This document shows positions 6,857-30,547 of a stretch of 37,156 bases of DNA, in pieces. The notes below the pieces were generated by a model, which was not told where the DNA came from, made no database searches, and worked only from the letters and a program-made list of their open reading frames with translations. The translations under genes and the position numbers were made by a program. Origin of the DNA: a virus (lineage: Duplodnaviria; Caudoviricetes); the IMG/VR virus record IMGVR_UViG_3300021185_000297, positions 1 through 37,156 of that record, one strand, 5' to 3'. Numbering within the stretch: the first letter of the stretch is position 1; each line of letters opens with the position of its first letter.

Positions 6857-6884
6857 TATAAATAGATATGAGGTAATATAAATA
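6857..6884 (+). promoter_or_regulatory. Tandem T4-type late promoters
   Basis: TATAAATA at 6857-6864 and 6877-6884. Confidence 0.65.
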
Positions 6885-7737: not shown

Positions 7738-7895
7738 TGATTGTATGTGTTTGTAAAGCAATCAGTGAGAAAGACCTAAAAGAAAACCCCAAACTACAAT
7801 CTCTTGTAGGTACTGGATGTGGGAAGTGTCTCTATGGCCCCCCATGGCAGTGCATCCTTCCCCCCGAAAAAAAACTTCAAAATAATTCAAAATAA
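7737..7895 (+). CDS. Bfd-like [2Fe-2S] ferredoxin
   Basis: MIVCVCKAIS...VGTGCGKC matches the Bfd CxC...CGxC pattern; TAATG coupling to the desaturase. Confidence 0.75.
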   Translation: MIVCVCKAISEKDLKENPKLQSLVGTGCGKCLYGPPWQCILPPEKKLQNNSK

Positions 7896-7898
7896 CGC

Positions 7899-7927
7899 TT
7901 GCCTTTCTCTGCCCTTGTTGTTATAAT
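7899..7927 (+). promoter_or_regulatory. Early sigma70-type promoter
   Basis: TTGCCT-17bp-TATAAT, extended -10 TG, A-rich upstream tract. Confidence 0.75.
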
Positions 7928-7933
7928 AAGTGT

Positions 7934-8089
7934 ATGTTAAATGAGAAAGAAAAAGATATTTCCTGTCCTGAGTGTTGCGGTAACGGTTACGACCTTGACG
8001 TGATGAACGAGACTGGAGATGAAGAGGATTGTTGGCAGTGTTGTGGTACTGGTACTACAACGGGTGAAGATTGGTATCCCAATTTTTAA
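7934..8089 (+). CDS. 51-aa acidic DnaJ-type zinc-finger peptide
   Basis: CPECCGNG and CWQCCGTG are two CxxCxGxG repeats; absent from the ORF track. Confidence 0.6.
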   Translation: MLNEKEKDISCPECCGNGYDLDVMNETGDEEDCWQCCGTGTTTGEDWYPNF

Positions 8090-8112
8090 TTCACTTATTC
8101 TGAAAATAATGC

Positions 8113-8141
8113 TTGACAATTCTTGCCCCATTTGATATAGT
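8113..8141 (+). promoter_or_regulatory. Early sigma70-type promoter
   Basis: TTGACA-17bp-TATAGT with extended -10 TG. Confidence 0.8.
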
Positions 8142-8174
8142 GTATAAGTAAATTAATTGAGAGGAAAATATATT

Positions 8175-8429
8175 ATGATTACATCAAAACTAAAACAGGA
8201 ACTTCTAGCCCTGAACTCTGTATCGGAGTTGAATGAAGTAATTGCTTTCGCAAGGGAAGCAGTGTCAATGCAAACTAAGGCGGCGATTACAGTCGGTTCT
8301 AAAGTTTATGTTGTTCAAAAGACCAAGAAAACTCTTGGTGAAGTTGTCAAAGTAAATATCAAGAAGGCGATTGTTATGTTGCCTGAAGGTAGATACTCTG
8401 TCCCATTAGCAATGTTGGAGGTGGCGTAA
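8175..8429 (+). CDS. Hypothetical early protein with SH3/KOW-like C-terminal barrel
   Basis: GAGGA RBS; ITVGSKVYVV...GEVVKVNIKKAIV pattern. Confidence 0.7.
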   Translation: MITSKLKQELLALNSVSELNEVIAFAREAVSMQTKAAITVGSKVYVVQKTKKTLGEVVKVNIKKAIVMLPEGRYSVPLAMLEVA

Positions 8430-9400
8430 TGAGTCATGAAGTAGAGATTGTAAACGGTCAAGCACAAATGGCGTATGCTGGTGATGTGCCTTGGCATGGA
8501 TTGGGGACTGCGGTCTCCAATGATTTGACCCCTAACCAAATGATGGTTAAAGCGGGTCTTGATTGGTCTGTGGATAAAGTTCCAACCTACGCAAAAGTAG
8601 GTGATGTGGAAGTTCCTACAGGTCAGGAAGCACTAGTAAGGTCTTCGGACAATAAAGTGTTGACTCAGGTTGGTAAGAACTGGCATCCTGTACAGAACGA
8701 AGAGGCGTTTGAATTCTTCTCTGAGTACTGTATGGCTGGTGACATGGAAATGCATACCGCTGGTTCACTCAAAGAAGGTAAGATGACTTGGGGACTTGCA
8801 AAAGTCAAAGAGTCGTTTGATGTTCTTGGTGATGACCAAGTGGATTCATTCCTATTGTTCTCTAACCCTCATGAGTACGGTAAGTCTATTGATATTAGGT
8901 TTACTCCAATTAGGGTTGTATGTAACAATACATTGTCTATGGCACTTGCAAGTGTAAAGAACACTGGTGTGAAGTTGTCTCACAGAAAAATGTTTGACGC
9001 TGATATGGTTAAAGAACACATGGGTATTGCACACGATAAGTTTGCACAATACAAAGATGTGTGTCAGTTCCTTGCGTCCAAGCAGTTCTCTGCTGAAGCA
9101 TTGATTCAGTACTACAATGAAGTCTTCCCTAGAACTTACAAGGGTAAAGAAGAAATCGAAGTAAAAGATTTCCTTGACTTGACTTCTAACGGTCAAAAGG
9201 CTTATGAAGTTCTTGAGACACAACCTGGCGCTAACTTTGCGAAGGGTTCATGGTGGCAAGCACTTAACAGTGTAACCTACTTAACTGACCACGAGATGGG
9301 TAGAGAAGTTGATTCAAGATTGACCTCTGCATGGTTCGGTGCAAACCAAACTAGAAAAATCAAAGCGGTTGAGAAAGCAGTCGAATTTGCGACTGCATAA
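8429..9400 (+). CDS. DUF932 family (TIGR03299-like) phage/plasmid protein
   Basis: PWHGLG, AGLDWSV, VQNEEAFEFF, TAGSLKEGK, TPIRVVCNNTL, WWQALNSVTYLTDH. Confidence 0.88.
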   Translation: MSHEVEIVNGQAQMAYAGDVPWHGLGTAVSNDLTPNQMMVKAGLDWSVDKVPTYAKVGDVEVPTGQEALVRSSDNKVLTQVGKNWHPVQNEEAFEFFSEYCMAGDMEMHTAGSLKEGKMTWGLAKVKESFDVLGDDQVDSFLLFSNPHEYGKSIDIRFTPIRVVCNNTLSMALASVKNTGVKLSHRKMFDADMVKEHMGIAHDKFAQYKDVCQFLASKQFSAEALIQYYNEVFPRTYKGKEEIEVKDFLDLTSNGQKAYEVLETQPGANFAKGSWWQALNSVTYLTDHEMGREVDSRLTSAWFGANQTRKIKAVEKAVEFATA

Positions 9401-9403
9401 GGA

Positions 9404-10024
9404 GTGAACGTGGAGAATATTAATTATGAACCACTTCTACCAGTAGGGTTCTTGATGGGGAGATTGGATACGTCCAGTCTTCCTATGCAAGAAATGATTG
9501 ACTATTTGGTAGAGAATAAAGCTAATGCTGGTCATTCTGGCAACCATGATGTTTCGTCACATACACAAGCGGAGGATATTGTTATCTCCGATAATGTGGA
9601 TTGTTTCCAAGAACTTATGGGCGTCATCGATGAAGGTATGGAGAACTTTACTAAAGGTCAGGTCGAGATTGAAAACATATGGGGACAGGTGCAAGACACG
9701 GGACAGTGTACTGCCTATCATGCCCATACAGACCCATACAGACGGCCTGATGGAAAAGATTTGTCGTTTGTATTTTATCTACAAGCAGACGAAATGAGTG
9801 GACACCTAAAATTTCCTATAGAGGTACATGGTGTTGACTATGGTAAAACTGTGGTTCCTAATACGGGTGGGATTGTAATCTTCCCCGCACATTTACCACA
9901 TTATACATATAAGAATGCTTCCGATAGTCCTAGGATTGTCGTGAGTGGTAACTATAGGGTAAAGGGATTTAAACAGTACAGACCCCAACCCAAGAAACAA
10001 GGAAGTAGTAATGAAACAAAGTAA
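9404..10024 (+). CDS. Putative 2OG-Fe(II) oxygenase
   Basis: HAH, LSFVFYL, IVIFPAHLPH, RIVVSGN motifs. Confidence 0.8.
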   Translation: MNVENINYEPLLPVGFLMGRLDTSSLPMQEMIDYLVENKANAGHSGNHDVSSHTQAEDIVISDNVDCFQELMGVIDEGMENFTKGQVEIENIWGQVQDTGQCTAYHAHTDPYRRPDGKDLSFVFYLQADEMSGHLKFPIEVHGVDYGKTVVPNTGGIVIFPAHLPHYTYKNASDSPRIVVSGNYRVKGFKQYRPQPKKQGSSNETK

Positions 10025-10688
10025 TCATGCAAATGCATATATGAAATCACCACGATATCAAGAATATCGAGAACAGATGTTAGCTAAAGGTGGATTTGAA
10101 GACGATTGGGACAGACAAGTAAAGTTAGGTGATAACTTACTAGACCAAGAAAAATTCTTTTCGCATCGTATCAATGATGGTGGTATCATGTCATTCGAAA
10201 CACGTGAAGATGGTGAATGGAAAACCGTCTCATTAAATGACATCTTGAAGGATAGACGAGTAGTAATCTTCGGATTGCCAGGCGCTTTCACTCCAACATG
10301 TACTACTCAACAATTACCCAACTTTGAATTGAACTATGAGAAGTTTACTGAAGACCGTGCTATTGATGAAATTTATTGTCTATCAGTAAATGATACCTTT
10401 GTAATGAATGCGTGGTTCGAAAATTCATTCATCGAGAAGGTGAAACCCATTCCTGATGGGAATTGTGAATTATCGATGGCATTGGGCCTAGATGTTGATA
10501 AATCATCTTTAGGTTTCGGTAGAAGGTCATGGAGATACGCAATGGTCGTTAATAACGGCATTGTTGAAATCCTTCAGATTGAAGACGGTTTCCCTGCCAA
10601 TAAAGACAACCCCGACCCATATGAAGTTTCTGCACCTCAGAACATCCTATCTCTCTTGGATGCTCACTACGATTTAAATATCGATTAG
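10011..10688 (+). CDS. Peroxiredoxin (Prx5/redoxin family)
   Basis: FGLPGAFTPTC, SVNDTFVMNAW, PDGN, GRRSWRYAMVV, DPYEVS. Confidence 0.93.
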   Translation: MKQSNHANAYMKSPRYQEYREQMLAKGGFEDDWDRQVKLGDNLLDQEKFFSHRINDGGIMSFETREDGEWKTVSLNDILKDRRVVIFGLPGAFTPTCTTQQLPNFELNYEKFTEDRAIDEIYCLSVNDTFVMNAWFENSFIEKVKPIPDGNCELSMALGLDVDKSSLGFGRRSWRYAMVVNNGIVEILQIEDGFPANKDNPDPYEVSAPQNILSLLDAHYDLNID

Positions 10689-10700
10689 GTGCAAACCCCC

Positions 10701-10754
10701 GTGGGGACTACCCCTTTCTCTCTCAATTAATAGGTAGTCCCCACATCTTTTTTT
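10701..10754 (+). terminator. Intrinsic terminator-like hairpin with a 20-nt loop (possible sRNA)
   Basis: Perfect 12-bp stem GTGGGGACTACC/GGTAGTCCCCAC followed by a T run. Confidence 0.75.
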
Positions 10755-10767
10755 AAAAACCCTTATA

Positions 10768-10780
10768 AATCAAAGACTTG
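10768..10780 (+). promoter_or_regulatory. IHF consensus site
   Basis: AATCAAAGACTTG matches WATCAANNNNTTR; A/T tract upstream; just 5' of an early promoter. Confidence 0.4.
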
Positions 10781-10796
10781 TTATGAAAGAAAGTGC

Positions 10797-10825
10797 TTGA
10801 CATTTTCTGCCCCATATGCGATAAT
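10797..10825 (+). promoter_or_regulatory. Early sigma70-type promoter
   Basis: TTGACA-17bp-GATAAT with extended -10 TG. Confidence 0.75.
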
Positions 10826-10860
10826 GGTTTTGTAATTGAGATTAAAGAGAGAGCTTTGTT

Positions 10861-11280
10861 ATGGCGATATATATGTGTGTTGAGGGTGGTAAGAAACACC
10901 AAAAAGAATTGACCGAACAAGTCGTGTATGCAGTAACTAAGAAGTTAATGCCTCGACTGAAGAACTTAGAAATAGACATCAAATTAGACCCACGTCTCAG
11001 TGAGAAAACTGGATGTGAAGGATTTTGTCTCCAAGTCGATGACCGACAGTATGAGTTGGAGATAGATAGTAATCTTGGGTTACGTGACTTCGTTACTACT
11101 ATAGTACACGAAATGGTTCATGTAAAACAAGGTGTACGTGGGGAGTTACGTGAACTCATGGGTAAACAATACTGGAAAGGTCGTGTTTGCAACAAAGAGT
11201 ACATGGAACAACCTTGGGAAAAGGAGGCATATCGCCTTCAAGATAAACTAGCGACATGGGTGTGGGAGAATGTTCTATGA
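10861..11280 (+). CDS. Zincin-like metallopeptidase-domain protein
   Basis: TTIVHEMVHVKQ (HExxH) plus QPWEKEAY distal Glu. Confidence 0.8.
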   Translation: MAIYMCVEGGKKHQKELTEQVVYAVTKKLMPRLKNLEIDIKLDPRLSEKTGCEGFCLQVDDRQYELEIDSNLGLRDFVTTIVHEMVHVKQGVRGELRELMGKQYWKGRVCNKEYMEQPWEKEAYRLQDKLATWVWENVL

Positions 11281-11441
11281 ACACCAACGATGAACGGACA
11301 ATGTTAGAAGTTGAGATTGCATGGTTAGAGAAAGACTTAAACAATGCAGAACAAAACGACAACGAGCCAATGGTCAGGAATCTGTCCAAACGACTCGAAT
11401 CATTGTACGAAAAGTTGACTGAACTCAAAAATAGTGCTTGA
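11277..11441 (+). CDS. Small coiled-coil hypothetical protein
   Basis: ATGA overlap, GGAG RBS, helical heptad pattern. Confidence 0.6.
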   Translation: MNTNDERTMLEVEIAWLEKDLNNAEQNDNEPMVRNLSKRLESLYEKLTELKNSA

Positions 11442-11466
11442 CAAAACCTGTTCTTGTTGTTATAAT
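11438..11466 (+). promoter_or_regulatory. Early sigma70-type promoter
   Basis: TTGACA-17bp-TATAAT with extended -10 TG. Confidence 0.85.
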
Positions 11467-11499
11467 GAGTATGTTGAATTGATTTGAAAGGTTTATATT

Positions 11500-12135
11500 A
11501 TGGTTAAAATTGCGGATTCAAGTTTGTACAATCTCTATTGTATCAAACATGCACAGAAACAGAATCGAGGTGCCAAGGGTACTACCGATTCTGAACGTAA
11601 GAAGTGTTACCGTTCTGAATGGGCATTTCAATCTGCAATGGAATTGAAGGGTAACCCCATTCCTACATTTGCTAATCTTTCTGAAGCACAGAAATTTGCG
11701 AAGAAGATTTACAAATCTAAGACATGGTACAAGCTCTTTGCGGAAAGTGGGGAACAAGATTTTATGAATCTGTTCCTCTCTGCCCGTAAACCTGAAGTTC
11801 AATTGAAAGCACGTTCCACTGGTCGTGGTACGTCAGGATTCACTAATGGACATAGTGTTACTCTTGATGCAAAGTGTGGTATGGATGCATACACCTTGAT
11901 TCACGAGTTGACTCACTGTCTTGGTCACATGCACCACGGACGTTCGTTCCGAAAAGCATTAGTACGCATGGTAGGAACATTCCTCGGTGCGGAGTATAAA
12001 AAGGAACTCAAAGCTCAGTTTAAGAAAAACAAACTGAACTGTGGTGAAGCACGTAAACCAATGTCATTTGAGAATTGGGTTGCTTCACGTAATCGCATGA
12101 AGGAGATGCGTGATAAAATGGAAAATGGAAAGTAA
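11500..12135 (+). CDS. HExxH metallohydrolase/peptidase-like protein
   Basis: LIHELTHCL...HHGRSF (HExxH plus HG-x-x-F, SprT/TIGR04338-like). Confidence 0.72.
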   Translation: MVKIADSSLYNLYCIKHAQKQNRGAKGTTDSERKKCYRSEWAFQSAMELKGNPIPTFANLSEAQKFAKKIYKSKTWYKLFAESGEQDFMNLFLSARKPEVQLKARSTGRGTSGFTNGHSVTLDAKCGMDAYTLIHELTHCLGHMHHGRSFRKALVRMVGTFLGAEYKKELKAQFKKNKLNCGEARKPMSFENWVASRNRMKEMRDKMENGK

Positions 12136-29001: not shown

Positions 29002-29030
29002 TTGACTTATCCTGCCAAACATGTCATAAT
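29002..29030 (+). promoter_or_regulatory. Early sigma70-type promoter
   Basis: TTGACT-17bp-CATAAT with extended -10 TG. Confidence 0.75.
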
Positions 29031-29061
29031 ACACTTGTATTGAGAATGAGAGGTGAGAGAG

Positions 29062-29229
29062 ATGTTCGAGGTTGGTGAGAAAGTTTGGGTCAAGTGTGTT
29101 GGTACTGAGTGTTGGGTTGCTGGTGTTGTCACGGGAATGACCCCCAAACGAATCCGAGTCTACAATGAGGTTCGTTGTCTTGAAGGTTTGTACGCTCCCC
29201 AAAATGTTCAGAAGCCAGAAAAAAAATGA
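29062..29229 (+). CDS. 55-aa SH3-like early protein
   Basis: GAGG RBS; MFEVGEKVWVK...GVVTGMTPKRIRV. Confidence 0.7.
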   Translation: MFEVGEKVWVKCVGTECWVAGVVTGMTPKRIRVYNEVRCLEGLYAPQNVQKPEKK

Positions 29230-29248: not shown

Positions 29249-29280
29249 TTGACATTTCCTGCCACGCTTGTTATTATAAT
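29249..29280 (+). promoter_or_regulatory. Early sigma70-type promoter
   Basis: TTGACA-17bp-TATTAT (overlapping TATAAT) with extended -10 TG. Confidence 0.75.
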
Positions 29281-29307
29281 AACATAATGAAGAAAGAGAG
29301 AGAAATT

Positions 29308-29625
29308 ATGAAAAATCAAAAACTAGTGTTTGACGGTGGATATCCTAACAACGATGAAAAAGGTCAATTCATTGAATACCTAATGGCGTTCTATGGTAAA
29401 GACCCTAAATGGGATGCGGTTTACAAAGATGCCCAAATGGGTGTCGTGGACGCATATGAGTGTATGGAAGAATACCTTAATGGTGATTATCCTTGCATCG
29501 AAGAGAACTGGACTACTGATGCCTACGGTATCAAAGTTCCTACTCACCTTTGGGGTGGTGGAGACACTGTCGATAGAGAGAAGGTTTTTGAAATATATTT
29601 TAACAAGTGCGAGGAGGTTGCATAA
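29308..29625 (+). CDS. Hypothetical early protein
   Basis: Purine-rich leader after the promoter; WGGGDTVDREKV motif. Confidence 0.7.
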   Translation: MKNQKLVFDGGYPNNDEKGQFIEYLMAFYGKDPKWDAVYKDAQMGVVDAYECMEEYLNGDYPCIEENWTTDAYGIKVPTHLWGGGDTVDREKVFEIYFNKCEEVA

Positions 29626-29957: not shown

Positions 29958-30082
29958 GTAAAGGATACAAAAAGGGTACTCTGTTACAGGAGTACTTCTT
30001 GAACCCGCACTTCAAACCGACTGAAAAACAGTTGAAAGAAATCGAACTTATTTTGAAAATAACGCTTGACAAAACCTGTTGA
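29954..30082 (+). CDS. 42-aa hypothetical peptide
   Basis: ATGA overlap; runs up to the next promoter. Confidence 0.45.
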   Translation: MSKGYKKGTLLQEYFLNPHFKPTEKQLKEIELILKITLDKTC

Positions 30083-30094: not shown

Positions 30095-30127
30095 GTATTT
30101 GTAATTGAGATTTAGGAGAAAGAAATT

Positions 30128-30547
30128 ATGGCGTATGTAAGTCAAGAAAATAAGAAAAAGTTAGCGGTTGGAATCAAAGCCGTTTGTAAGAAATATGGAT
30201 ACAAAGTAAGTTTGGGTGTTCAACACCACAGTACTTTGGTTGCCAAAATCAAAGGTGCAGAAGACATCATGGAAGAATACTGTGAGGTTCAGATGCAACC
30301 TCAGAAGGTCTTAGAGAGGGAAAACAGACACTACACGTTTAGCCCTGTCGAAGTAATGGAAGAAGCTAAGAAGTGGGGACACAGAGTCAACGAATACTGG
30401 ATTCCCGAAAACTACGGTGAGAAAGGTATTGCCTTCTTGACTGAATTGAAAGGTGCTATGGAAGGTGAAGACTTCTTCTGTGAAGATGATGCGATGACTG
30501 ACTACTTCCACAGAAGTCACTATATTGAAATGAGTTTGTACGCTTAA
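30128..30547 (+). CDS. Hypothetical early protein
   Basis: AGGAG RBS; MAYVSQE...VQHHSTL...DAMTDYFH. Confidence 0.75.
   Translation: MAYVSQENKKKLAVGIKAVCKKYGYKVSLGVQHHSTLVAKIKGAEDIMEEYCEVQMQPQKVLERENRHYTFSPVEVMEEAKKWGHRVNEYWIPENYGEKGIAFLTELKGAMEGEDFFCEDDAMTDYFHRSHYIEMSLYA

Follow-up and report, generated by a model that had tools for sequence, protein, structure and literature searches.

We describe a stem-loop at the end of an early operon in an uncultured marine phage, the 20-nt loop of which is complementary, well beyond chance, to the leaders of the phage's own early genes. The window, by which we mean the whole stretch of DNA analysed (37,156 nucleotides), is a 37-kb fragment from an uncultured virus record and is ~25% complete, with ~75% of the genome missing. 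Its source appears to be a marine T4-like myovirus, judging by gene content (nrdA/B, phoH, peroxiredoxin, exonuclease and 2OG-Fe(II) oxygenases) and by nucleotide matches to Melnitz, C48C1 and cyanophages; the runs that contain the window sequence are marine. Antisense pairing of the loop with the early leaders, as predicted from their complementarity, is well supported computationally. The reading that we tentatively prefer, with somewhat less than even confidence, is that a 3'-end RNA carrying this loop would pair with early leaders and damp early translation in trans. Recognisable middle promoters are absent from marine T4-like relatives according to the available part of one account (PMC9004378), and the switching-off of early genes is described as partly understood even for T4 in the available part of another (PMC3014915).

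A probable terminator hairpin closing an early operon

The features of the operon and of its 3' end are listed below in window coordinates, with predicted duplex energies in kcal/mol.

7899 to 7927, plus strand: sigma70-type early promoter ahead of the operon, with a leader predicted as a target of the loop (-13.2)
8113 to 8141, plus strand: sigma70-type early promoter for the operon with the hairpin at its end
10011 to 10688, plus strand: peroxiredoxin gene, last of the operon, upstream of the hairpin
10673 to 10680, plus strand: TTTAAATA within the peroxiredoxin ORF, rejected as a late promoter
10689 to 10754, plus strand: 3' UTR of the peroxiredoxin gene; predicted span (~66 nt) of a putative processed RNA
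10701 to 10744, plus strand: 12-bp stem-loop (from the fold and the terminator filter), probably the intrinsic terminator of the early operon in which the peroxiredoxin gene is last
10713 to 10732, plus strand: 20-nt unpaired loop, with a CCUUUC core (as in the R1 family of relatives, see below) and an extension complementary to TAATTGAGAGA leaders
10748 to 10754, plus strand: U7 tract in the sequence, 3 nt past the stem

An earlier note on this DNA had reported a perfect 12-bp stem presenting a 20-nt loop and followed by a T run, and all of these are present: the arms (10701-10712 and 10733-10744) form 12 perfect pairs, 8 of them G-C, and ATC separates the stem from the T7 run. Folding of 10673-10760 gives -25.4 kcal/mol with a z score of about -4.5 (-4.48 to -5.0), a value equalled by 0/200 shuffles. 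The hairpin is the sole one in the window that passes the terminator filter, and it shares with the intrinsic terminators of this phage group a GC-rich stem and a U run at the end of an operon. It differs from them in its loop, which at 20 nt lies outside the 3-8 nt expected of intrinsic terminators; the majority of intergenic terminators from 13 related records carry 3-6 nt loops (for example UUCG or GAAA), in agreement with the earlier remark that terminator loops are usually much shorter. The U run also begins slightly farther from the stem than in a canonical terminator, and a consensus terminator scan did not call the hairpin.

The same note had placed a near-consensus late promoter, TTTAAATA, directly before the hairpin and had proposed a late-expressed RNA on that basis. 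This box sits in the last codons of the peroxiredoxin gene, and across 22 genomes (the window plus 21 relatives) it is only 3.1-fold enriched upstream of genes relative to antisense-coding sequence, as are other AT-rich variants, compared with 230-fold for TATAAATA; a late promoter at 10673 is therefore rejected. There is no NATAAATA box in 7800-10760, neither a TATAAATA box nor a validated variant of it stands just upstream of the hairpin as it would for a T4-type late-promoter transcript, and we found no promoter belonging to the hairpin RNA itself. The hairpin closes a run of abutting genes (8175, 8429, 9404 and 10011) behind the sigma70-type promoters at 7899 and 8113, and probably represents the terminator and 3' UTR of this early operon rather than a late-promoter RNA; late expression from a promoter of its own is not supported.

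We read the hairpin RNA primarily as a 3' UTR that is already transcribed early, and, given its position under early promoters, any timing would come from accumulation of a stable 3' end or from late read-through. Late boxes do occur farther upstream, at 6857 and 6877, with no strong terminator found between them and 10701, and transcription from them could read through to the hairpin. Four metatranscriptomes partly cover the region at a depth of 2-4 and leave 10622-10809 uncovered; they consist of assembled contigs and are uninformative on expression. At the other end of the peroxiredoxin ORF, window positions 10011-10190 encode an N-terminal extension of ~55 residues ahead of the Redoxin domain that is unmatched in most relatives.

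Complementarity of the loop to early leaders

In addition to the leader of the promoter at 7899, six predicted target leaders were located in the window.

8151 to 8168, plus strand: top predicted target (-17.9), overlapping the Shine-Dalgarno sequence of the gene at 8175, in the hairpin's own operon
10832 to 10853, plus strand: next early leader (9 bp, 4-nt bulge, 7 bp; -16.5), with its promoter at 10797-10825 and gene start at 10861
11486 to 11491, plus strand: GAAAGG Shine-Dalgarno sequence of the early gene at 11500, the weakest predicted target (-11.3), with its promoter at 11438-11466
29041 to 29062, plus strand: leader of the early gene at 29062 (-16.5), with its promoter at 29002
29296 to 29305, plus strand: leader of the early gene at 29308 (-15.4), with its promoter at 29249
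30101 to 30121, plus strand: leader of the early gene at 30128 (9 bp, 4-nt bulge, 7 bp; -17.2), with its promoter at 30066

All five matches to the loop complement that the earlier note had quoted were recovered, at 8152 (12 nt), 10833, 30102, 29054 and 29296. The seven early leaders, a set curated by hand, pair with the loop at a mean of -15.4 kcal/mol, compared with -6.8 for the 48 other gene starts of the window (AUC 0.97), and this early mean was reached by 0/1000 mononucleotide-shuffled and 1/1000 dinucleotide-shuffled loops; the predicted enrichment of early leaders over shuffled controls was thus borne out. When duplexes were ranked over 57 window gene starts, the best four were all early leaders behind sigma70-type promoters. 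With leaders collected automatically, a set lacking some promoters and containing a doubtful one, the AUC was 0.87, and the window loop scored against 152 early leaders and 300 other starts of relatives gave 0.75, with 1/150 shuffles equal. The early leaders of the window are predicted to be nearly unstructured, and net binding after target opening amounts to -7.7 to -16.5 kcal/mol for all seven, in a model that leaves the strain of pairing by a closed loop outside its scope. As a check on selection, each intergenic hairpin loop of 6-32 nt was scored against the early leaders of its own genome: the window loop averaged -14.6 (z -5.8), and the best among 412 loops in 20 other genomes reached -9.4. 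The loop therefore has what is expected of a trans-acting base-pairing sRNA, an accessible seed whose complementarity to the initiation regions of its targets goes beyond chance. In two contigs (L279 and L320), the loop complement was also matched exactly over 20 nt, before a reductase-like gene of another phage; this match came out of a selected pattern search and we put it down to chance.

In the mechanism that we tentatively propose, host RNA polymerase would start at the promoters at 7899 and 8113 and transcribe the operon, and its message would decay to a very stable 3' hairpin of ~45-66 nt that accumulates on a scale of minutes. The early leaders, with almost no structure of their own, would be bound by the open loop of this hairpin in or immediately before the Shine-Dalgarno region, so that ribosome loading would be blocked and early translation held down by a negative feedback that sets in with a delay. 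From the computed structure, position, complementarity and accessibility of the hairpin we predict that transcription terminates there, that the 3' fragment is released or persists, and that it pairs with the leaders and represses them. A decoy for a leader-binding factor, which the earlier note offered as an alternative, agrees poorly with the orientation of the loop: RNA from the coding strand has the leader's complement and not a sense copy of it.

The ranking of targets also raises the possibility that the loop acts mainly in cis, pairing with the leader of its own transcript (8151-8168) as soon as transcription of the operon is complete or, in read-through RNA, with the next leader (10832-10853). 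In favour of it, the hairpin's own operon supplies the top-scoring leader (-17.9) and the third-ranked one is 100 nt downstream; the 3-nt displacement of the U tract makes read-through plausible, and no strong terminator was found between the late boxes at 6857 and 6877 and position 10701. We nevertheless regard action mainly in cis as improbable, as distant leaders at 29-30 kb match equally well (-15.4 to -17.2) and would not be needed for it.

Another explanation would place the function in DNA or in a protein site, the element being either an inverted operator copy that loops to 10833 across an IHF-like site or a minus-strand sense decoy. A 13-mer that we take to be IHF-like lies between the two copies at 10768-10780, at a distance of 29 nt before the -35 box at 10797, and RegA, an RNA-binding repressor, is present in 5/5 relatives tested. 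This explanation is very improbable in our judgement: relatives have the IHF-like site at the same promoter without an upstream inverted copy, no minus-strand promoter was called in 10744-11098, no minus-strand U tract follows the stem, and a DNA site would have no need to fill a hairpin loop exactly. In either orientation the 13-mer was found at 7/326 promoter-like sites, against ~1.6 expected, mostly at the promoter of the same gene in relatives.

The small CxxC-rich ORF at window positions 7934-8089 starts almost at the predicted transcription start, so that the usual purine-rich leader is read as codons; G056, the closest relative, shares this arrangement.

Distribution of the hairpin and the R1 family of relatives

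Searches recovered the exact hairpin from just two contigs, the near-identical L092 and L445, in which stem and loop are identical and the adjoining promoter spacer differs; the L445 contig reaches ~30 kb farther upstream. Homologues were sought by four pattern scans of viral contigs and two peroxiredoxin-anchored searches (80 viral and 80 metagenome loci). The scans returned 7, 2, 76 and 23 stretches, with the hairpin in one near-identical contig alone, and identities in the anchored searches drop from 99-100% straight to 60% or less. No such loop lies behind the gene in the distant viral peroxiredoxin loci among those listed, nor in relatives with the same peroxiredoxin-sprT junction. With stem and loop unchanged in the two contigs, the window hairpin shows no covariation of its own. 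Rfam has no match to the window at gathering scores, and a search of 11 loci at E<=1 returned nothing apart from tRNAs; cultured phages gave no meaningful match to the window hairpin or to the R1 hairpin described below, and the titles and abstract openings of the papers listed in literature searches contain no description of such a hairpin in T4-like phages. Lack of conservation of the loop was named in the earlier note as grounds for abandoning its proposal, and the loop is indeed unconserved beyond near-identical contigs. Of the trans-acting silencer put forward there, the complementarity to early leaders beyond chance is retained here, while late expression and wider conservation of the loop are not.

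So narrow a distribution is what would be expected if an ordinary terminator had received an inverted piece of an early leader in its loop, through recent recombination or a template switch, and were inert, its complementarity merely reflecting where it came from. In keeping with such a copy, the hairpin is known from one narrow population only, other peroxiredoxin-sprT junctions are without the loop, promoter-leader cassettes are visibly shuffled between genes, and the leader motif occurs in relatives without the hairpin. We still consider an inert copy, the main rival to the preferred reading, rather unlikely. Contiguous leader matches reach at most 12 nt in the window and at most 15 nt in the T4-like relatives examined, although a perfect source copy may lie in the ~75% of the genome that is missing; the loop fits the leaders as a consensus would, two-part matches at 10833 and 30102 included; it begins with the CCUUUC core of the conserved R1 family; and its 20 nt come at a cost to terminator stability.

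The R1 family, which we defined by a covariance model, consists of hairpins with YCCUUUC loops behind a 70-residue gene between the sliding clamp (gp45) and clamp loader (gp44) genes. An R1 hairpin is present at 60 of the best 80 of 588 loci for the small gene (58 at 47-62 bits and 2 at ~23 bits), a sample that is redundant and skewed to the query's kin; the model was built from 24 of the 60. The remaining loci have a plain terminator or no hairpin, and two are cut by contig ends. Examples are L325:1145-1215, L330:1705-1770 and L380:1723-1799, with 57 further loci (G012, G038, G051, G053, G055 and G058), and several loci have two such loops in tandem. The stems vary while the loop stays constant: 6/10 pairs are changed on both sides in an independent as well as in a model-fitted alignment, and covariation in the latter is 0.40, compared with at most 0.15 in slid controls. 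R1 is an undescribed family with no match in Rfam. It is a better supported object than the window hairpin, and the existence of an analogous conserved family in relatives makes a functional RNA plausible.

Leaders of R1-bearing phages show a corresponding tendency. GAAAGG or AAAGGA occurs in 16/54 early leaders of six R1-bearing genomes and in 2/51 of five R1-less ones, a contrast that amounts to roughly a single evolutionary event because the five R1-less genomes form one clade. Scored against the early leaders of their own genome, R1 loops showed a strong preference in G051 (AUC 0.90), a complete genome in which early leaders carry GAAAGGAG, none in G053 (0.52) and a weak one in G038 (0.57-0.63).

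The window hairpin resembles R1 in lying directly after a stop codon, with a CCUUUC loop, a U run and then a sigma70-type promoter, and in its G-rich stem, the GTGGGG/CCCCAC outer stem of L363, L365 and L368 being shared with it. Unlike R1, which has a loop of 8-10 nt in the order gp45, small gene, gp44, it stands behind the peroxiredoxin gene; the gp44 region lies outside the window. Against the R1 covariance model it scores 11.3 bits (E 0.081) in the wrong register, compared with 47-62 bits for most members.

The loop of the relatives, UCUCCUUUC, presumably resembles the 16S rRNA 3' tail of many bacteria, and this likeness would suit an RNA directed mainly at host messages or at a general ribosome-binding step, with the match to phage leaders secondary. 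For the window hairpin we hold this to be most improbable, as its loop has no CCUCC core and most of the loop length matches the phage-specific leader motif.

Other arrangements occur at the R1 site. In L402:1712-2240, L403 and L404, and in G057 and G059, a peroxiredoxin gene lies between gp45 and gp44, and the peroxiredoxin gene and an R1 hairpin could have moved together; no hairpin follows the peroxiredoxin gene in L402 and L404. G036, G041, G043 and phage C48C1 (L636:2714-2800) have another long-stem, multi-loop element there, in each case with UCAUAAUGU, and this element shows no clear preference for early leaders (AUC 0.47-0.69).

Lineage pattern and comparison with known regulators

Over the part that it has in common with the window, G056 is 84-91% identical; at the gp44 site it has a plain terminator, with R1 absent. 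In a fast tree of ten partly missing markers, from which two duplicate records were left out, G056 groups with the window among R1-bearing lineages, the exact sister being unsettled. AATTGAG is found in 4/13 early leaders of the window-G056 lineage compared with 1/54 in R1-bearing genomes, and the leader of the 8175 gene reads GAAAGGAAA in the R1-bearing G051, G058 and G012 and TTAATTGAGAGGAAA in the window and G056. This lineage pattern fits the loss of an old R1 hairpin and the use of a retargeted one, the replacement being pieced together across two fragments (G056 stops short of the peroxiredoxin region and the window short of gp44) in which leaders are shuffled between genes. The window element has the appearance of a lineage-specific version of the R1 hairpin, whose anti-Shine-Dalgarno loop is shorter. 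The leader motif does not need the RNA, since TTGAGAGAG is common in the near-complete relatives G021, G036 and G043, where no matching hairpin was found.

A broader proposal, which we consider conceivable though doubtful, is that marine T4-like phages shut off early translation not with a RegB-type nuclease but with antisense RNAs borne on terminators, and that this lineage swapped its gp44 hairpin for a retargeted one as its leaders changed. The predicted outcome would be the same as for T4 RegB, the inactivation of many early mRNAs at their ribosome-binding regions; RegB, however, is a protein that cuts GGAG, in the available text of PMC3014915, and the window element is predicted to act by RNA pairing. 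A search of five relatives with PF10715 (RegB) gave no match, and the control was silent too, so absence does not follow from it.

Among bacterial RNAs, the closest parallel is with the alpha-r14/cuckoo sRNAs, such as NfeR1 of Sinorhizobium meliloti, which in the part of PMC10746234 available to us combine a pyrimidine-rich loop motif with variable stems and predicted pairing at the translation initiation regions of many mRNAs, and in which anti-Shine-Dalgarno loops silence targets (PMC10746234). Tandem loops, as in several R1 loci, are a further likeness. The window hairpin differs in being phage-encoded, in having no promoter of its own and in a loop that matches a phage leader motif. Cuckoo RNAs are expected to have at least two hairpins with CCUCCUCCC in the loops and to match Rfam; the window has a single hairpin, its loop contains CCUUUC and CUCUCUC but neither CCUCCUCCC nor CCUCC, and it has no Rfam match.

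The proposed route of production has a parallel in the lytic Pseudomonas phage PAK_P3, where, as far as the available text goes, RNAs derived from 3' UTRs accumulate during infection, and ncRNA1 and ncRNA2, like the RNA proposed here, have no start site of their own and are processed from 3' UTRs; unlike it, they are given no early-leader targets in that text (PMC10914365). The portion of a 2025 review of phage sRNAs that was available describes no such class-wide silencer (PMC12197685).

What is particular to the window hairpin is that its target motif is a phage leader and not the Shine-Dalgarno sequence, together with the apparent swap against the conserved R1 family. If the preferred reading is true, one motif common to a whole class of leaders would let a terminator loop silence them all, a timer that needs no protein, and the hairpin would show how an R1-like RNA gets retargeted. 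The R1 family, larger, conserved and without an Rfam model, is the better-supported object in its own right.

Two minor observations were made along the way. In G053:126096-126459, regA was matched as two pieces in different frames. In an unrelated phage group, contigs of 12-16 kb (L614, L615, L621, L625 and L632, at ~1501-1544) have a large hairpin loop containing CCUUUCUCU.
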